Part shown: in pieces, positions 3,272 through 26,476 of the stretch
Numbering within the stretch: position 1 is the first letter of the stretch
How the letters are laid out: every line of letters starts with the position of its first letter
The notes under the pieces: model-generated
The model's database searches: none
Told to the model about the DNA's origin: nothing
Seen by the model: the letters and a program-made list of their open reading frames with translations, nothing else
NCBI RefSeq assembly: GCF_001462395.1
Contig: NZ_LNTB01000001.1
Span: 90,001 to 122,000 of the forward strand
Length of the DNA stretch: 32,000 nt
DNA from: Pyrodictium occultum
Lineage (GTDB): Archaea; Thermoproteota; Thermoprotei_A; Sulfolobales; Pyrodictiaceae
Direction of reading: 5' to 3'
Translations under genes and position numbers: made by a program

Positions 3272-3646
3272 ATGGCCAAGGCGTTTGGCGAGCTAATATA
3301 CACTCGGGAGGCCGGGGGCCCGGCCGCGTCTAAGGCAGAGACCCATGCGCCCAAGATAGAGGCGCCGGAGAAGGTGAGGAAGGGCGAGCCCTTCAATGTG
3401 ACCATTAAGGTAGGCCCGCACCCTAACGAGGTGCAGCACTCCATACGCCGCCTCGAGATATGGTTCCAGGAGGAGGGCCGCGCCTTCAACCCGATACATA
3501 TAGCCACCATAGACCTTGAGCCGGTGTACGCAGAGCCCGAGATAACTATAACTATTAAGCTGGAGAAGAGCGGCACCCTCTATGCGCTCGGCTACTGCAA
3601 CCTCCACGGCCTCTGGGAGTCCCGCAAGGAGATAAAGGTAGAGTGA
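3272..3646 (+). CDS. sor: Superoxide reductase, 1Fe neelaredoxin type, with natural Lys-to-Thr change in the EKHxP motif
   Basis: The ORF is open from 3248. ATG 3272 is preceded by GGAGG at 3258-3262. The 124-aa product aligns block by block with Pyrococcus-type SOR: ETHAPKIE, HPNEVQHSIRRLEIWF, LYALGYCNLHGLWE. All four His and the Cys iron ligands are present. Confidence 0.9.
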   Translation: MAKAFGELIYTREAGGPAASKAETHAPKIEAPEKVRKGEPFNVTIKVGPHPNEVQHSIRRLEIWFQEEGRAFNPIHIATIDLEPVYAEPEITITIKLEKSGTLYALGYCNLHGLWESRKEIKVE

Positions 3647-3678
3647 AGAGCCCCAAGTACTTCTTTTCCTGCAGGCCC

Positions 3679-3716
3679 GGCCTCTCCGCTTCCTCGGCCG
3701 CCGAGAGGCCCTTTTT
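3679..3716 (+). terminator. Hairpin plus T5 tract downstream of sor
   Basis: GGCCTCTC (3679-3686) pairs with GAGAGGCC (3703-3710), and TTTTT follows at 3712-3716. A second T-rich tract (CTTCTTTTCC) lies at 3660-3669. Confidence 0.45.
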
Positions 3717-3857
3717 GCCGGACACCGCGCCCTGGCTGTATAAGCCTCCACCTCTGTACTGCACGGCCGCGCCGTCCCGCCCACTCTCTGTACGGCTTCT
3801 CTAGGCATAGGGCCAACGGGCTGTGCTTCTCCCGGCGCTCCACCCGGCTAGGGGGAA

Positions 3858-3928
3858 TCAGCACTCAAGACCCTCTTCACAGCCCGGCGCTGCCTCGGTG
3901 CAGGGCTCCGTAGGCGCGGGGTCATCAC
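3858..3928 (-). ncRNA. Candidate C/D-box sRNA (1)
   Basis: The minus strand reads GUGAUGA (3928-3922), an 11-12 nt spacer, CGGA (D'-like), ~25 nt, GUGAAGA (C', 3880-3874), exactly 12 nt, then CUGA (3861-3858). A minus-strand TATA-like TAGTAAAAAC (3970-3961) lies ~30-40 nt upstream of the C box. Confidence 0.4.
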
Positions 3929-4016
3929 ATCCAGCGTTACAAGTCCCTATGTGTCTGAGGGTTTTTACTACTCCGGCTTGGCGGCTAGGACTATACCTCG
4001 CTAAGGGACCCTCTGG

Positions 4017-6722
4017 ATGGAGACCAGCTGCCTTGAGACGGGCTGGTGTGATCTAAGCGAGGAGCACCGTAGGATAAGGGCTGCTCTCGAGGGTCTCCTG
4101 GCCAGCTATGTGAGAGGCGACGCCGACGAGTACTGGATGCCGGTTATAGTGGCTCCCTACGGCTCCGGGAAGACTACGCTGCTCCGCCACCTGGAGTGGT
4201 ACGCTGGGAGAATAGGGACCAGAGCGCTGAGGGTCGAGCTATCAGACATAGTCGAGTATATCATAGAGCGGCATGGCAGCGTCCATGAGTCGGAGCTGCC
4301 TAGAGTTCTGGAGGAGTATGCTAGAGAGAAGCTGGGCAGAGGAGACGGTGTAACGGTACTCCTCGTGGACGAGGTGGAGGAGAGCTACGACCTCCTACGC
4401 GGAGTGGTGGAGTATGAGACCTCCCCCTTCCGCGGCGTCGCCGAGGCGATAAGGACCCGTAGCACTAGTGTATACCTCGTGCTCGCCTTCGGCCCCTCCT
4501 CAACCCTCAAGGAGGCCGTCTTTGGCCCCGTGGCCTGGCGCAGCCGCGTCTTCACACTCCCCCTGCTCCCCAAGCAGGTTATAGAGAGGATGGTCAGGGA
4601 GAAGCTCGGCGACAGCCTGGGCGAGGCCACGGACTTACTGGCCAACACGGTCTGGTGGGCCTCTAAGGGGCGTATAGCCTGGGCGCGGATGCTGGTAGAC
4701 ACCGTGGCCGCTAAGCTGGCTAGCGCGCTCCGGAGTGGCCCCGAGAAGGTGGAGAGTCTGCTTCTAGGCGAGGAGGCCCTCTCCCGAGAGATAGTCGAGG
4801 GGGTGCCGCTCTTTGACAAGACGGGCTACAGGGAGGTCCGGAGGCTTGTCGAGGATAAGGCGCTGGTACCGCTTCTCGCGGCCCTTGTAGGCCCCGTCCC
4901 GCTCTCGCTCCTCGAGAAGATGCTGGGCCGCGAGGTGCTGCCCGAGGCCAGCCTGGCCGTGGTGTACTCGAGGACGGCTGTGAGGGTGGAGGATCTCCTC
5001 TCTGAGGCGGAGAGCTGGATTACCCGTTACGCGCGCGCGAAGGGCTTCCAGGCCTCCTCAGTAGAACACGCGGTGTCCGCGCTGGAGCATGTGGCGCAGG
5101 CCTGGAGCCGCGGCGGCCTCATGATCTACGAGCCCCAGTCGCTCCGCGAGCTGTTCTCCCTGGCGGCCGACGTGGCCAGGGAGATCTACAGTGACGACCC
5201 CCACGCGGCTCAGCTCATAGAGGCGCTGAGCCCCGACCTCCTAAGCCCGCCGCTGGAGAGGCTCGACGAGCCAGCGGCGGCGCTCAAGCCAGGTATGGTG
5301 GCCCGCATCTACCCCGTGGCCAGCAGCTCGCCTCTGGTGGGATGCGCCAGGAGGGTAGGGCCGAGCCAGGTAGCAGAGGTCGTTGAAACGCTGTCCCTCA
5401 GCGAGCTGCTAGACTATAGCGCTAAGCTGTCCGAGGTTTTAGGCCTGGAGAGCATGATCGGGAAGCATGGCATGAAGCTGGCGGTGCTCCCTCTCCGGCT
5501 GGCCCAGTCTCAAGCCCGGAGCATAGCCTGCAGGATGCTCTCCGGCGAGCGGCTGGCGGTACTCGTAGTAGACACAAGGCGGGAGCGCAGGGAGGCTAAG
5601 CTGCCTAGACTCCTCGAGGCGGTAGCCGATCTCTCCGGCGGCCTAGTAGCCGAGGCGGGGCCAAGGCTGAGCCTCTTCATTTACTCTCTGCTCTACGGCC
5701 TCTCGGTGTCTACATCGGGCTGCCTGCCCGAGAACCTGTCTGGCAACGACCGGCGGGCTGTGAATCTCTACGCCGATCTTCTGCGTAGCCTCTTGATAGA
5801 GGTGCTTGCATCTAGGGGCAGCCGCGGCCTAGCCAGCATAGAGGCTAGGGCTAGGCTCGTGGAGCGCGAGTACGGCGAGACGGCATACGCCCTTGCAGCG
5901 CTCATAGGCTCTGTGGGGGTCGAGCCAGCGAGGAGGATGGTCGAGGAGGCGGCGAGGCTCCAGCAGCGGGCATGGAGCCTGGGCGAGAGGATAGCTAAGC
6001 TCCTAGGTGGCCCCGCTCCCCCGAGGCAGGCAAGCCCGGCCAAGGTATTCAGCGAGGTTGAGGGGATCTACTCGCTGCTCGAGAAGAATGGGTACACTGC
6101 TGTAGCCGGCGTAGCCGGATCCTGCAGCACCGGCATCAAGGGTATACGGGCTCCACGCATTGTCGCACTGCTGCTCGGCATCGAGAGCTACCGGCCGGAG
6201 GAGAACCCGGAGGACCTGGCGGAGCTGGCCGAGAAGCTGCTAGCCTATTCCCGCCGCCTGCCGAGGCACGGTGTGCTCGCCGAGGCGGCTAGGCTTGCTG
6301 AAGAAGCAGCCTCGCTCATGGAAGAGGTAGGGAGCAGCGGCCCTGCGCAGGCGCTGGCACGGCTGGTCATGGCGCCGTTTATCCCGGCAGCCTCAAGGCT
6401 TGTCGAGGAGCTGGCCTCCCTCGGCAGGGTCTACGAGAGGCTTGAGGCCGAGCTGGCAGCTCTGCCGGAGGCGCTGCGCAGAAGAGCGGAGGAAGCGGTA
6501 GCCAGCGACCTCTCTAACGTTAAGAGCCTATCCGAGGCAATGGACTACCTGGCGAAGGCTGTCAGCCTCGTGGGGAGGCTGAGAACTCTCTCCGAGCAGG
6601 AGGGCCCTGGGATAGAGGACCTCAAGAACAAGATAATAAGCCTAATTGACTCGATAATTTCTGATTATACCCAGGCTAGCTACGCCGGCCAGGAGGCTAG
6701 AGAAGAAGCCCTAGCAGGGTGA
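4017..6722 (+). CDS. Large P-loop NTPase (ORC/Cdc6-like AAA+/STAND-type N-domain) with ~650-aa alpha-helical C-terminal region; family not recognised
   Basis: 901-aa ORF with ATG start. Walker A is VIVAPYGSGKTTLL (aa ~44-57) and Walker B is VLLVDEVEE (aa ~114-122). A sensor-1-like YLVLAFGPSS and a lid-like segment RVFTLPLLPKQVIERMV...ASKGRIAWARMLVD follow. The remainder is Ala/Leu/Glu/Arg-rich. Confidence 0.8.
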   Translation: METSCLETGWCDLSEEHRRIRAALEGLLASYVRGDADEYWMPVIVAPYGSGKTTLLRHLEWYAGRIGTRALRVELSDIVEYIIERHGSVHESELPRVLEEYAREKLGRGDGVTVLLVDEVEESYDLLRGVVEYETSPFRGVAEAIRTRSTSVYLVLAFGPSSTLKEAVFGPVAWRSRVFTLPLLPKQVIERMVREKLGDSLGEATDLLANTVWWASKGRIAWARMLVDTVAAKLASALRSGPEKVESLLLGEEALSREIVEGVPLFDKTGYREVRRLVEDKALVPLLAALVGPVPLSLLEKMLGREVLPEASLAVVYSRTAVRVEDLLSEAESWITRYARAKGFQASSVEHAVSALEHVAQAWSRGGLMIYEPQSLRELFSLAADVAREIYSDDPHAAQLIEALSPDLLSPPLERLDEPAAALKPGMVARIYPVASSSPLVGCARRVGPSQVAEVVETLSLSELLDYSAKLSEVLGLESMIGKHGMKLAVLPLRLAQSQARSIACRMLSGERLAVLVVDTRRERREAKLPRLLEAVADLSGGLVAEAGPRLSLFIYSLLYGLSVSTSGCLPENLSGNDRRAVNLYADLLRSLLIEVLASRGSRGLASIEARARLVEREYGETAYALAALIGSVGVEPARRMVEEAARLQQRAWSLGERIAKLLGGPAPPRQASPAKVFSEVEGIYSLLEKNGYTAVAGVAGSCSTGIKGIRAPRIVALLLGIESYRPEENPEDLAELAEKLLAYSRRLPRHGVLAEAARLAEEAASLMEEVGSSGPAQALARLVMAPFIPAASRLVEELASLGRVYERLEAELAALPEALRRRAEEAVASDLSNVKSLSEAMDYLAKAVSLVGRLRTLSEQEGPGIEDLKNKIISLIDSIISDYTQASYAGQEAREEALAG

Positions 6723-6727
6723 TACCT

Positions 6728-7846
6728 ATGGTATGGGCGCTTGAAAGCCTCGTAGAGGAGTACGAGGCAGCCCTCAGCTCCAAGAAGTCGATGGAAGAGG
6801 CGCTCCACGGTATAGAGGCAAGCCTGGAGACGGCTAGGGCAGCCCTCACGGCACTGCCCGAGACCCTGCGCTACGAGATAGCCGCGAGGCTCAAGACGGT
6901 CAGGGACTACGTGGCTGCATCGAGCTACGACAAGGCACGCCTCGAGGCCTCAACGGTATGCAGGCAGGCCCTCCAGGCCCTAGCCAGAGCGGTGGCGGAG
7001 GCCCATGTCGAGGTGGAGGAGTGCCCTCCCCCGGATGCCGTCAAGGCAGTAGTGGCTGTGGTTAATGCCAGCGGCCCGCTGGCTCCCGTTACCCGCTCTC
7101 TCCTTAGGGCAGGCGCTACAACCTTTAACGACGTAGCATATAATGCTAGACGCATAGCCACCCGCTGGGAGGACGTTAGCAGGCAGCTACTCAGCATCTA
7201 TAATGCAGGCCGTAGCCTCGAGGCTAGGGAGCTGGCGAAGATCCATGATGTGGTACTGCTGGCGTCAAAGCTGGTAGAGGCTGAGAGCTTCGAGGCCGCT
7301 CTAGAGCACCTTGAGGCGGTGGCGGCCAGGCTTACCGAGGTGGCCCAGCTGTTCGAAGCCCTTGGCTCCAGTATGAGCGATCTCTCAGAGGCCCTCAACA
7401 TATGCCGTGAGGGCATGGGCGCGGAGACGCCGCTCTGCCGCTGGCTCTCCCGGGTGATCGGGAGCATCTTGTCAGCATATGATAGCGCCTCCGACCTCAT
7501 GAATCTGAGCGGGCTGGAGGACCTCGTGGCGGTTGCAGCGAGGATACGGAAAGCCTACGAGAGGCTAAGCGCTACAAGGCGCTTACTGGAGAAGCTGTCC
7601 TCAAGCATTGCATCGGCGGCCGGCGTGGGCGTGGCCGCTTCGAGCATGAGAAAGGCTATGGAGGCTATAGCTGCCGGCAGGGAGCGGCTGGGGCTAACAC
7701 CCCAGGAGGAGGAGCTGCTCATAGAGCTGGTGGAGCGCGACGTGCTAGACCTGCTCGAGGTGTACCGGCAGGGCAGGGAGCGGCTAGAGGCTGCACTCCG
7801 GCTCTGCAGCCATGGACTGGCCAGGTGCAGCCTCCACGCATACTAG
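6728..7846 (+). CDS. All-alpha, Ala/Leu/Glu-rich hypothetical protein translationally coupled to the ATPase
   Basis: The ORF is open from GTG 6719, which overlaps the upstream TGA as GTGA. ATG 6728 sits 4 nt after the SD-like GGGTGAT (6717-6723). The product is 372-375 aa with no recognisable motif. Confidence 0.7.
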   Translation: MVWALESLVEEYEAALSSKKSMEEALHGIEASLETARAALTALPETLRYEIAARLKTVRDYVAASSYDKARLEASTVCRQALQALARAVAEAHVEVEECPPPDAVKAVVAVVNASGPLAPVTRSLLRAGATTFNDVAYNARRIATRWEDVSRQLLSIYNAGRSLEARELAKIHDVVLLASKLVEAESFEAALEHLEAVAARLTEVAQLFEALGSSMSDLSEALNICREGMGAETPLCRWLSRVIGSILSAYDSASDLMNLSGLEDLVAVAARIRKAYERLSATRRLLEKLSSSIASAAGVGVAASSMRKAMEAIAAGRERLGLTPQEEELLIELVERDVLDLLEVYRQGRERLEAALRLCSHGLARCSLHAY

Positions 7847-7908: not shown

Positions 7909-8253
7909 GTGCCGCGCGAGCAGCTTGCCGACACGCTGAAGAAAACCGGGGTATGCAGGAAGGTCGTGGAGGTAGAGGAGTCTAGCGAATGCATCCTCCT
8001 CTACTGCAGCGACGAGGACGGCATGCTGATAGCGGCCGCGAGCTACTACGACTGGGTCTACGCCAAGACCGTTGCGGAGGGCGCTATAAAGCCTCACATG
8101 TGGCACTGTAGCGACGTCTTCTACACGCCCTACGGCCTCTACAGCTTCTCCAAGAACGTGGAGGAGCTTGCCAGAAAGATAGCGGAGAAGAAGCCCCTCG
8201 TCTACGCCCAGATGAGAATGGCGCTCGAGAAGCTAGCCGCGGTCGAGGAGTAG
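7909..8253 (+). CDS. Hypothetical small protein (114 aa)
   Basis: ORF with GTG start on the same strand as its neighbours. Composition is mixed rather than low-complexity. A TATA-like GATATTAGG lies ~40 nt upstream. No family recognised. Confidence 0.55.
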   Translation: MPREQLADTLKKTGVCRKVVEVEESSECILLYCSDEDGMLIAAASYYDWVYAKTVAEGAIKPHMWHCSDVFYTPYGLYSFSKNVEELARKIAEKKPLVYAQMRMALEKLAAVEE

Positions 8254-21435: not shown

Positions 21436-21566
21436 GCCGGGGTGGCCGAGCGGTCCAAGGCGGTGGGCTCGAGACCTGCATGTATCCCTTTCCGGCTGCC
21501 CAAGGCTCCGGGAGACCCACTGCCCCGTGGAGGGGCGCGCGGGTTCAAATCCCGCCCCCGGCGCCA
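21436..21566 (+). tRNA. tRNA-Ser (anticodon CGA) with ~41-nt intron at the canonical 37/38 position, CCA encoded
   Basis: Acceptor GCCGGGG/CCCCGGC. The anticodon stem GUGGG...CCCAC is interrupted after loop CUCGAG by ~21474-21514. A long variable arm (CCCC-GUGGA-GGGG) and T arm GCGGG-UUCAAAU-CCCGC are present. Confidence 0.9.
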
Positions 21567-24379: not shown

Positions 24380-25813
24380 TTAGTGGGTACAGGGAGCCTG
24401 CACGTCCACCTCAACTGGTACGGGCGTCGGGGCTCCATGCTTCCTCACTATCGCGGTACCTTCTTCCAGGCTTGAGAGCAGCGAGTCGTCCTCAAGGCCT
24501 ATTGCACGTGCAACGAGAAGCCTATCGTTTACCGAGACTATTCTATGTGCCACTATCGTATTGAAGTTAGCCTCGCTCAGCTCGGGGAGCAGGCGTGGGG
24601 TGTGGACAACCATTACGAAGCCTATACCGTATTTGCGTGTTTCAGCTAGCAGCTCGGGGACTACATTGTTGTTTAGCAGATTGTGAGCCTCCTCCACAAC
24701 TATGAGGATCCTGGCTGGCTGTCCAGAGGTGGCGAGGGTGTAGAGCATTTGGAGAAGATATATGGCGTACATCTTCCTTATGCGTGTTGAGCGTATAGAG
24801 TCGAGCCGGATTACTGTCGGCATTGGGTCCTTGAGATTCGCTATGGCTTCAAACCTCCTTGTGCCCCTTATCGTGAATAGGTCTGCATACCCGCTGGTTG
24901 TTATCAGGTTTAATCTCCTCAGGAGGGCTAGCCATATCTCCCTCTCTGCCTTCGTCATTTCATCCCGTTTCCTGGCTACTACAGAGGATATGGCCCGTAG
25001 CAGCTCGTGCACAGTGTTCCCCGATTCAAGAATACCCTGGATCTCCTCAATGACACCTGGCTCGAGCTGGCTGGTTAGGGCGTCGAGTAGTCCTTTAGCC
25101 GTGTTAACGCTCTGGCTGGCTGCCAGGGCTAGGAACGCGGCCAGTATGCTCGACTGGAAGGGGCTAAGCTCCAGCACGCTTTCCAGCACTGAGATGGAGG
25201 ACTCGAGGGGGATGCTGGGGCTCGTGAAGGCCACGGGGGGCAGCCTGGGGTGGGAGAAAACGTTGTATTCATCTACGCCCTGCTCCCGGAGTAGCTGCTC
25301 GTACTCTCCATGCCAGTCGAGTATAACCGGCTTGAAGCCTATCCTGCTGCTGCATGCAGCTATCCTTGCAGCGGTGTGGCTCTTACCGGAGCCCGTCGCC
25401 CCCACAACGAGCACGTGGCGCAGGAGAGCCTCCTCGTCAAGCACCAGGGGGGAGCCGGCACAGTAGCCTAGGACCAGGCCTCCAGCCTCCGCCCCTCCGG
25501 GGTACCCATTGCACCAGAGTATTTCATTGCCGCGGGGAGGCGGTAGCAGTGTGTACCCCTCATCCCCCTTCTGGCTTCCCGGCTCGCTTAGCAGAAGCCC
25601 TGGAGCCGTGACCGCGGCCTGGTACTCGCGTGCCGGCAGCTCTATCCTCGAGCTGCATGAGCCCGAGCGGCACTCGAAAACGTAGCGGCCGCCCGCGCCT
25701 AGCAGGCGCTTGTAGAACACGTCCATGTAGTCTACAAACTGCTCCCGGACCCCGGCCACTTCTAGGATGCTGGCCCGGCTGAGCAGCCTGCGGATCTGCT
25801 CCAGCGCCTGCAA
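24380..25813 (-). CDS. HerA/DUF87-type (FtsK-HerA superfamily) P-loop ATPase
   Basis: 477-aa ORF. Walker A is VLVVGATGSGKSHTAARI and Walker B is ARILIVVEEAHNLL, with a long helical insert between them as in DUF87/HerA-like proteins. Its stop codon is 1 nt from the tRNA-Leu CCA end. Confidence 0.8.
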   Translation of the reverse strand: MQALEQIRRLLSRASILEVAGVREQFVDYMDVFYKRLLGAGGRYVFECRSGSCSSRIELPAREYQAAVTAPGLLLSEPGSQKGDEGYTLLPPPRGNEILWCNGYPGGAEAGGLVLGYCAGSPLVLDEEALLRHVLVVGATGSGKSHTAARIAACSSRIGFKPVILDWHGEYEQLLREQGVDEYNVFSHPRLPPVAFTSPSIPLESSISVLESVLELSPFQSSILAAFLALAASQSVNTAKGLLDALTSQLEPGVIEEIQGILESGNTVHELLRAISSVVARKRDEMTKAEREIWLALLRRLNLITTSGYADLFTIRGTRRFEAIANLKDPMPTVIRLDSIRSTRIRKMYAIYLLQMLYTLATSGQPARILIVVEEAHNLLNNNVVPELLAETRKYGIGFVMVVHTPRLLPELSEANFNTIVAHRIVSVNDRLLVARAIGLEDDSLLSSLEEGTAIVRKHGAPTPVPVEVDVQAPCTH

Positions 25814-25876: not shown

Positions 25877-26476
25877 CTAGGAGCCCCGGCCGAGCATTTT
25901 GAATAGCCAGCGCAGCCTAGGCCTCCTGGCCCTCGGCATGCACCGGACGGGCGGCCTCCCAAACTCCCTCCTAAGATGTATGAATAGCAGCGCGGCGTGT
26001 ACAGCGTCGCTCACAGGATCGTGGAATCTCCGTGGGGGCATGTGCAGGCCAAGCGTTGCAGAGAGCGCATCCTCAAGGGTGAGACGCCCCGCCTCCACTG
26101 CCCTGCCCCTAATACTCGGTACGCTCAGCAGCCACGAGAGCACGTCGACGTAGCAGAGCTCTTCGGCGCCAACTCTCCTACGCCTGGCCTCGGCAGCCAG
26201 GAACTCTACGTCATGACGCCCGTATACCACTAGGACTCTGCCCCTCACCGCCCTAAGCACGTCCTCAAACCAGCCTTCGGCGCGGCAGGAGCCCGTGACC
26301 CCATGCACCAGCGCCGAGGCGCCAACGGTGCGAGGCGGCTCGGAGTAGTACACGACCCCCGAGAGGTCCAGAGTATGGCCGTCGAAAGGCACCACTGCCA
26401 CCGAGACCAGCCTGCAGTTATTAGGGTCGAGGCAGGTGGCCTCTACATCAACCGCGGCGTAGCCCCGGCCCCTCAC
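25877..26476 (-). CDS. DEDDh 3'-5' exonuclease (DnaQ/epsilon-like)
   Basis: 199-aa ORF. ExoI is AVDVEATCLD, ExoII is YGRHDVEFL and ExoIII is HDPVSDAVHAA. It overlaps the upstream gene by 4 nt. Confidence 0.8.
   Translation of the reverse strand: MRGRGYAAVDVEATCLDPNNCRLVSVAVVPFDGHTLDLSGVVYYSEPPRTVGASALVHGVTGSCRAEGWFEDVLRAVRGRVLVVYGRHDVEFLAAEARRRRVGAEELCYVDVLSWLLSVPSIRGRAVEAGRLTLEDALSATLGLHMPPRRFHDPVSDAVHAALLFIHLRREFGRPPVRCMPRARRPRLRWLFKMLGRGS

Follow-up and report, generated by a model that had tools for sequence, protein, structure and literature searches.

The stretch of DNA analysed here (hereafter the window) comprises 32,000 nucleotides (nt) of Pyrodictium occultum contig NZ_LNTB01000001.1, positions 90,001 to 122,000 of the forward strand, and carries on its plus strand an overlapping pair of genes, here called gene 1 and gene 2. 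Gene 1 (CF15_00515, 4017..6722) starts with ATG and encodes 901 amino acids (aa), with 100 % identity to the P. occultum CF15_00515 product; it belongs to the short form of an unnamed BrxC/DpdH-like superfamily of AAA+ ATPases. Gene 2 encodes an all-helical partner, of 375 aa if translation begins at the GTG at 6719 or of 372 aa if it begins at the ATG at 6728, and ends at 7846. Both open reading frames (ORFs) had been delimited identically in a first-pass annotation of this DNA, as had the stop/start overlap (GTGA, 6719-6722) and the alternative ATG start behind it. A homology search with gene 1 returned 44 further homologues with 19-68 % identity, and a gene 2 homologue or a helical ORF of the same size lay directly 3' of every gene 1 homologue for which enough DNA was available; therefore, both ORFs are real genes. 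Full-length homologues of gene 1 were present in P. delaneyi (67 % identity), Hyperthermus butylicus (53 %), many metagenome-assembled genomes (MAGs) of Desulfurococcales and Thermoproteota (36-55 %), Thermofilum (~32 %, ~1080 aa) and Vulcanisaeta (26 %, 1119 aa).

The residues conserved in gene 1 are those expected of a P-loop ATPase. G49-S50-G51-K52-T53 (Walker A, 4161-4175), D118-E119-x-E121-E122 (Walker B, D118-E122, 4368-4382), G159-P160, W174-R175, W213-W214 and R219 were invariant in the 43-sequence core alignment, and both Walker motifs lie where they had been placed before. Across 80 superfamily members Walker A and B were invariant and R175 and R219 were each at least 90 % conserved, the two arginines also being invariant in a 14-sequence N-terminal set. 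An AlphaFold2 model of gene 1 was built on the 43-sequence alignment (mean predicted local distance difference test score, pLDDT, 88.5; predicted template-modelling score, pTM, 0.70), and DSSP was used for domain borders. Searched against the PDB with Foldseek, the model matched RuvB, the RFC small subunit, p97-D1, spastin, DnaA and ClpX over ~260-320 columns from the N-terminus, with E-values of 1e-5 to 4e-4, a probability of 1.0 and 12-19 % identity. Because GSGKT (49-53) and DE (118-119) are invariant and the Foldseek probability was 1.0, the N-terminal domain as modelled is assigned to the AAA+ superfamily. RuvB, RFC and p97 ranked on top, DnaA stood 44th, and no ORC/Cdc6 protein was among the 50 PDB matches listed. 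No Foldseek target spanned the whole protein, the best query-normalised TM-score being 0.19-0.21, and the search against viral predicted structures gave only AAA+/clamp-loader matches. At the level of PDB sequences, the N-terminal profile met generic AAA+ proteins at E-values of at least 2e-4 and over short motifs only, with ORC4 and DnaA only at 0.02-0.04, and the full-length profile gave only compositional matches, those of the tail being to designed helical bundles and coiled coils.

The model divides gene 1 into five parts. Residues 1-185 (4017..4571) form an N-terminal helix with a conserved W10/D12/H17/R21 signature and the AAA+ alpha/beta base, as judged from the alignment, DSSP and Foldseek; between strands 2 and 3, DSSP places two helices (75-85 and 91-106) with a short extended piece, which is consistent with an HEH insert. 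R175 (4539-4541) stands directly before strand 5 and R219 (4671-4673) at the start of a lid helix, positions from which we regard them as a putative trans-acting arginine finger and a putative sensor 2, respectively. The segment W-R-S-R-V-F-T-L-P-L presumably resembles the SRC arginine-finger motif of clamp loaders. The helical lid follows at residues 186-256 (4572..4784) and contains the conserved N210, W213, W214 and R219. Residues ~257-323 (4785..4985) are predicted to form a winged-helix domain with the order strand-helix-helix-helix-hairpin, and they fall within the ~300-column alignments to RuvB and RFC. An alpha/beta middle domain introduced by a two-helix connector occupies residues ~324-570 (4986..5726); its conservation, 0.37-0.59 per 50-residue block, is as high as that of the ATPase region, P425, P433 and P439 are invariant within the core family, and no counterpart was found among the Foldseek matches listed. 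In the variable helical tail (residues ~571-901, 5727..6719) conservation falls to 0.28-0.37, and DSSP of the model interrupts the helices at ~701-731, where a coiled-coil hairpin could have its tip. The former description of everything behind the ATPase as a ~650-aa featureless helical region needs correcting, since residues 324-600 are as conserved as the ATPase region; only ~571-901 is helical tail. Classical AAA+ proteins with lid and winged helix, a group that includes RuvB, the RFC small subunit, DnaA and Orc1/Cdc6, supplied the best structural matches, over residues ~1-320; nothing in this group corresponds to the alpha/beta domain, the helical tail or the dedicated partner of gene 1.

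Scans of both proteins against Pfam, NCBIfam and PADLOC yielded nothing above threshold and recognised no effector domain in either. The first-pass annotation had assigned the pair to no described family, and these three libraries likewise explained neither protein and gave no confident profile match that would account for both genes. The sub-threshold matches were weak P-loop families (AAA, AAA_22, nSTAND5, NACHT and mad8) and compositional coiled-coil entries. SMC/Rad50-like and kleisin-like readings were ruled out by motif topology: in SMC/Rad50-type ABC ATPases Walker A stands at the N-terminus and Walker B with the signature motif at the C-terminus, with the coiled coil between them, but here Walker A and B lie 66 residues apart in one N-terminal domain, and the matches to SMC_N, Rad50, JetC and LmuB were sub-threshold and compositional.

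Gene 2 proved harder to follow. Word-indexed searches with it, as a single sequence and as a profile, returned itself and a single other protein, and the index was probably overloaded by low-complexity helical sequence; its homologues were taken from the DNA downstream of gene 1 homologues. The tight coupling of the two genes proposed earlier held in the relatives, where the pair was adjacent in every locus examined and the junctions measured -29 to +27 nt in 21 loci. Gene 2 diverges faster than its neighbour, with 19-29 % identity where gene 1 holds 38-49 %. In the short form four cysteines are invariant (C78, C99, C360 and C367, numbered from the ATG at 6728), and the motif L-C-x2-[GK]-[ILV]-x2-C closes gene 2 in 19 short- and long-form loci, one of which has N for the first Cys. 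The C-terminal segment that ends in this motif (7691..7843, +) is possibly a winged helix, and the C-termini of short-form and long-form gene 2 aligned over 63 columns in hhalign (probability 89 %, E-value 2.5e-6). In H. butylicus (L032, CP000493.1, 11718-12841) the gene 2 homologue was called as two genes of 43 and 318 aa; the first ~45 codons are out of frame, and the remainder matches gene 2 residues 48-372 at 39.5 % identity. The frame change could be a true frameshift, a sequencing error or recoding.

The pair had been called an orphan module, a description that no longer holds. An exhaustive profile search placed it in a sizeable superfamily, for which 71 representatives were counted at E<1e-30 and 338 at E<1e-10, the lower tiers including coiled-coil false positives. 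It consists of ~37 full-length core members and a halo of metagenomic proteins of 1000-1700 aa that share W10, H17, R139, R175, N210, W213/W214, R219, P439 and F554. Walker A and B are 65-68 aa apart in short forms (66 aa in gene 1), 72-120 in long forms and 88-138 in the halo, and the short form lacks both an insert between these motifs and part of the tail that are present in long forms. In a crude neighbour-joining tree (midpoint-rooted, 576 columns), the short form was one clade nested in the long forms, beside the Thermofilum type. Two halo contexts were inspected, each with a candidate partner of ~500 aa downstream: in L030 the candidate is followed by a SNF2/DEAD helicase, in an island that further encodes HEPN, a PLD nuclease, two DNA methylases and YaaA/DUF328, and in L031 by AAA_5 and VWA genes. 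Among the short forms outside Pyrodictiaceae, L029 lies amid Csx1, HEPN and PIN-MazE genes, and in two others gene 2 overlaps at its 3' end with a DUF123 (PF01986) gene (L027, 10776-11273; L028, 10665-11159). The DUF123 protein has the pattern Y-x-Y-[IV]-G-S-A...R-H, reminiscent of GIY-YIG nucleases, a clan to which DUF123 presumably belongs, and the gene may be an alternative effector; no DUF123 gene was present in the window or the Pyrodictiaceae loci.

The operons of the long forms were the most informative. In Vulcanisaeta, Caldivirga, Thermofilum and one Pyrodictiaceae MAG, the two long-form proteins measure 1009-1119 aa and 370-436 aa, and the gene after them encodes an SF2 helicase of 927-992 aa that matches DpdJ (PADLOC E-values 4e-50 to 4e-53; hhalign against bacterial DpdJ, probability 100 %, E-value 1.5e-40). 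In Thermofilum and Vulcanisaeta the helicase is followed by an 820-915-aa protein with a weak, collinear match to the C-terminal half of DpdJ, and then by a ~240-255-aa PLD nuclease whose best match is DpdK (E-value 2e-10); the sequences of L013-L015 stop short of any nuclease position. 7-Deazaguanine genes stand beside the pair in Thermofilum and Vulcanisaeta, the flanks carrying QueF, a Vut_1 gene of the preQ0-transporter family and a TGT+DUF6884 gene, the last together with QueF in Thermofilum. In the Thermofilum-type contigs L016 (14985-end) and L023 (14680-end) one protein combines TGT and DUF6884 beside QueF and the Vut_1 transporter, and the TGT protein of these loci is 26 % identical to Enterobacter DpdA (E-value 3e-20). 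DUF6884 is, according to the literature, the DpdC domain and related to YaaA. The protein is apparently a DpdA-DpdC fusion, and the gene set of L016 and L023 suggests 7-deazaguanine modification of DNA in hyperthermophilic Thermoproteota. That QueF and TGT stand here only as crenarchaeal genes for archaeosine in tRNA was considered and rejected because of the DUF6884 domain on the TGT protein, its identity to DpdA and the recurrence with Vut_1 in independent loci. In L017 the helicase, the PLD nuclease and Vut_1 were present, with no TGT gene inside the stretch examined.

Bacterial clusters are arranged dpdE-F-G-H-I-J-K, with a DpdG of 291 aa, a DpdH of 1068 aa, a protein of 282 aa in the DpdI position and a DpdJ of 1478 aa, and the gene sizes of the archaeal long-form operons fit the order dpdG-H-I-J-K. 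On a Deinococcus taeanensis plasmid (L021, 10760-15545), two successive genes make up DpdJ, the first for a DEAD/DEAH helicase of 1027 aa and the second for a hypothetical protein, a split like that in the archaeal loci. The position upstream of dpdJ-dpdK in an island with dpdA (and dpdC) was found for the long-form pairs of L016 and L023; no such setting was found in the window or in any short-form locus inspected. From the operon order, the DpdJ and DpdK matches and the 7-deazaguanine flanks, it follows that the archaeal long-form pair holds the DpdH-DpdI slot. A 2025 preprint counts "DpdHI/BrxC" as a BREX-like factor of Dpd. Among the comparisons offered in the first-pass annotation, that with BrxC was the most useful lead, as the long forms occupy the DpdHI/BrxC slot and the modelled domain order resembles most of that published for BrxC.

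DpdH is a large ATPase with an N-terminal P-loop (~1040-1070 aa), and a small overlapping partner gene comes between it and dpdJ and dpdK; the long-form relatives of gene 1 and gene 2 hold the same place. Both ATPases share a C-D-x4-H-x3-R signature before Walker A, and DpdH shows the same pattern of weak AAA_22 and nSTAND matches in Pfam as gene 1. In hhalign, the N-terminal 330 residues of the family aligned with DpdH with a probability of 74.5 % and an E-value of 2.7e-5, the pre-Walker-A signatures coinciding; the probability was 2-10 % with the narrow core profile and 59-75 % with the 80-sequence profile. In contrast, ~250 aa separate Walker A and B in DpdH, against 66 aa in gene 1.

For BrxC, the published order is AAA+, lid, winged helix-turn-helix (wHTH), a ~200-aa alpha/beta domain without a structural match behind a two-helix connector, a second wHTH, and lastly a coiled coil of 250-500 aa that bears a distal subdomain; the protein multimerises with ATP, binds DNA and contacts BrxB-PglZ, and an ORC/Cdc6-type arginine finger has been described for BrxC and BrxD. 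The gene 1 model, read against this description, has AAA+, lid and wHTH, then two connector helices that lead into an alpha/beta domain, and a helical tail interrupted midway; the second wHTH apart, the two are close. Gene 1 and gene 2 together encode 1273 aa and BrxC 1200-1300 aa, although the former are split in two genes and their Walker A-B spacing of 66 aa compares with 191 aa in Acinetobacter BrxC. BREX-related DUF499 systems, which are common in archaea including TACK lineages, likewise team a BrxC-like AAA+ ATPase with a helicase and a methyltransferase. However, those ATPases end in wHTH and RRM rather than a coiled coil and are paired with an N6-methyltransferase, whereas gene 1 had no DUF499 match and no methyltransferase is present here. 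The positional and architectural link of the pair to DpdH and BrxC is strong and the sequence link is weak, and for this reason we describe the pair as DpdHI/BrxC-like without filing it in either family. It would work like DpdHI/BrxC and is probably related to them, and we infer that the relation to DpdH/DpdI is one of homology rather than analogy.

In Pyrodictiaceae the setting of the pair is of another kind. The order in P. occultum, P. delaneyi and MAGs is Tpt1, SDR, HAD, SfsA, (a superoxide-reductase-like gene), gene 1, gene 2, a 114-aa ORF, a tRNA-binding protein, DUF364, ABC and ZnuA, and H. butylicus keeps the downstream half of this housekeeping block. This synteny points to vertical inheritance in the core genome, not in a variable island, the two options that the first-pass annotation had put forward for checking. 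A block at 3949..4016 (+), near-identical to P. delaneyi on alignment, is the putative promoter and leader of gene 1 and contains a TATA-like TTTTTAC at 3962-3968 (+), ~50 nt 5' of the ATG.

Considering these results, we favour, by somewhat more than even chances, the reading in which gene 1, together with its dedicated partner, acts as a scaffold or sensor that binds DNA and is driven by ATP. The pair would stem from the ATPase and partner at the core of archaeal Dpd-like systems and, in Pyrodictiaceae, have become fixed in the core genome without adjacent helicase, nuclease or modification genes. Starting from the fold of the first ~300 residues, the conservation of motifs and of the pair, the synteny and the operons of the relatives, we infer a plausible model for the remainder, including the cellular role. 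The active site of gene 1 would be completed by the arginine finger of a neighbouring subunit, in which case ATP binding should drive its self-association into dimers, rings or spirals. The winged helix and the alpha/beta domain may contact DNA, the helical tail may bind the co-translated gene 2 partner, and gene 2 would add its cysteine-bearing C-terminal segment, which may be a winged helix. In the long forms, the pair would most likely recognise unmodified DNA or give the helicase and nuclease licence to act, a role that has been suggested for BrxC of BREX systems. In Pyrodictium it would be a streamlined, vertically inherited derivative in which the ATPase and partner were kept and the adjacent helicase, nuclease and modification genes are gone. 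As no effectors adjoin it, the pair would either work with effectors encoded elsewhere or have a role in surveillance of the host DNA.

Several observations weigh against a scaffold of the BrxC/DpdH-DpdI type. The profile similarity to DpdH is limited to the N-terminal ATPase region and is not decisive: hhalign found none between gene 1 residues 320-600 and DpdH, and there was none between the partner family and DpdI or between the archaeal upstream 291-aa gene and DpdG. No curated BrxC or DpdH model (NCBIfam, PADLOC, Pfam DUF499/DUF6079) matched gene 1, none of the 38 outer superfamily members scanned was recognised by NCBIfam or PADLOC as DpdH, BrxC or any other component with a name, no BrxC entry was among the listed Foldseek or PDB-sequence matches, and the second wHTH of BrxC was not identified in the gene 1 model. 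The window contains no helicase, no nuclease (PLD included), no TGT and no Que gene, and is without dpdA/B/C, E, F, G, J or K; PglZ and PglX were absent from the window and every related locus inspected, and BrxA/B/L from the vicinity of gene 1. The AlphaFold2 model of gene 2, built on a two-sequence alignment, is all-helical and poor (pLDDT 55). Furthermore, a defence gene would not usually keep its place among housekeeping genes as strictly as this pair does across Pyrodictiaceae.

This last point, together with the absence of an adjoining effector gene, is what recommends the strongest rival, in which the pair is a domesticated housekeeping factor of Pyrodictiaceae chromosome maintenance, for example an Orc1/Cdc6-like loader or a stand-in for SMC-kleisin, and its link to defence is evolutionary only. 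The catalytic residues are intact over 41-68 % identity, and a DNA-organising complex would be compatible with an AAA+ domain and wHTH joined to an extended helical tail, and with a partner whose C-terminus may be a winged helix. We nevertheless consider this explanation unlikely, if deserving of attention, as the family, among the matches listed, was seen in some Thermoproteota only and not universally, all close outgroups lie in helicase/nuclease or defence-island settings, gene 2 diverges faster than gene 1, and the apparent frameshift of H. butylicus gene 2 would be odd in an essential gene. A related proposal, to which we give a little less credence still, is that a defence-derived pair has been domesticated as a stand-alone, ATP-driven complex for DNA organisation or surveillance that follows an SMC-kleisin-like logic, with an AAA+ ring or spiral, coiled-coil arms and a winged-helix partner; if true, it would represent a previously unrecognised class of archaeal chromosome-associated machine.

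The N-terminal domain had earlier been designated AAA+/STAND-like, of which Foldseek upheld the AAA+ part. In the second rival, gene 1 is a STAND-type NTPase sensor (nSTAND5/NACHT-like) that would sense an invader ligand through its helical C-terminus and gene 2 would be an effector or adaptor. Its layout of NTPase, helical domain, winged helix and sensor resembles NOD modules, three homologues gave faint or weak PF25199 matches, and the variant L025 adjoins an nSTAND3 gene. The Pfam matches themselves (nSTAND_NTPase5, E-value 0.059; NACHT, 0.036) reached 13.6 and 14.3 bits, far under the gathering thresholds of 34 and 26.7, respectively; the comparisons with STAND and KAP ATPases thus met sub-threshold P-loop matches only. 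The best structural matches were classical AAA+ proteins, with no named STAND protein among the 50 listed from the PDB, the conserved arginine before strand 5 fits an ORC/Cdc6-type finger, and the proteins lack a recognisable effector domain, all of which makes a STAND sensor improbable. Finally, that the pair is a decaying, non-functional remnant of a Dpd-like system stripped of its helicase, nuclease and modification genes, as the lack of partner genes nearby, the short form's loss of the Walker A-B insert and part of the tail, and the H. butylicus frameshift might suggest, is very improbable, because both ORFs are full length, the catalytic residues are invariant over genus- and family-level divergence, and the conserved synteny and near-identical promoter block of the two Pyrodictium species indicate purifying selection.

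BREX and Dpd have BrxC and DpdH/DpdI, respectively, at their centre, yet how these proteins work is poorly understood. The preferred reading, a scaffold or sensor derived from a Dpd-like core, bears on both, as it concerns a superfamily of ATPase-partner pairs that has no annotation in Pfam, NCBIfam or PADLOC, sits in the DpdH-DpdI slot of archaeal Dpd-like islands and also appears with other modules (SNF2 helicase, AAA_5 and VWA, DUF123). The pair is no orphan, and it does not represent a system that is entirely new in kind: of the claim that this was an undescribed system, the part concerning the ATPase-partner family stands, the family itself being undescribed in curated databases, and the part concerning the system does not, since the systems of the relatives are recognisably Dpd-like. 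The Thermofilum and Vulcanisaeta loci indicate that 7-deazaguanine DNA modification and restriction may exist in hyperthermophilic Thermoproteota, where it was not described in the literature searched; the supplementary files searched for the YprA preprint make no mention of Vulcanisaeta, Thermofilum, Caldivirga or Pyrodictium. They add a DpdA-DpdC-like fusion in Thermofilum and a split archaeal DpdJ. As the smallest version (901 plus 372 aa), from a hyperthermophile and with a high-confidence model of the large subunit, the Pyrodictium pair is an attractive minimal system for work on DNA binding and assembly, and its fixation in a housekeeping block makes it a test case for the domestication of a defence component.

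Several neighbouring features were recorded. The 114-aa ORF (7909..8253, +) is a conserved neighbour of gene 2, with 46-53 % identity beside it in L002, L003, L006, L007 and L010, and had no Pfam match. Its direction is that of gene 2 in L010 and the three cultured species, but it is read from the other strand in the MAG loci L002, L003, L006 and L007, and in view of these four its membership in the module is uncertain. Upstream, an apparent 840-bp gap contains a 124-aa desulfoferrodoxin/superoxide-reductase-like gene (3272-3646, +), whose product is 84 % identical to a P. delaneyi protein bearing Pfam Desulfoferrodox/SoxY; a 171-aa minus-strand ORF overlapping it (3293-3808) is Arg-rich and was rejected as spurious.

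A likely archaeal C/D-box small RNA (sRNA) lies 5' of gene 1 and divergent from it (~3853-3935, -), in a region with no Rfam match. It has a C box GUGAUGA (3928-3922), a 12-nt guide CCCCGCGCCTAC and a degenerate D' box, followed by a C' box UGAAGA (3879-3874), a 12-nt guide GGGTCTTGAGTG and a D box CUGA (3861-3858). The C box and guide 1 are exactly kept 5' of gene 1 in P. delaneyi (L033), L004 and L006, and the C' box, guide 2 and D box in L033 and L010, although the gene 1 proteins there are only ~38-43 % identical. Elsewhere in the window, a HerA/DUF87-type ATPase of 477 aa (24380-25813, -) adjoins a 199-aa ORF (25877-26476, -) that had no Pfam match, just downstream of tRNA-Leu, and an Rfam tRNA match over 128 nt (21436-21563, +), not called by ARAGORN, may be an intron-containing archaeal tRNA.

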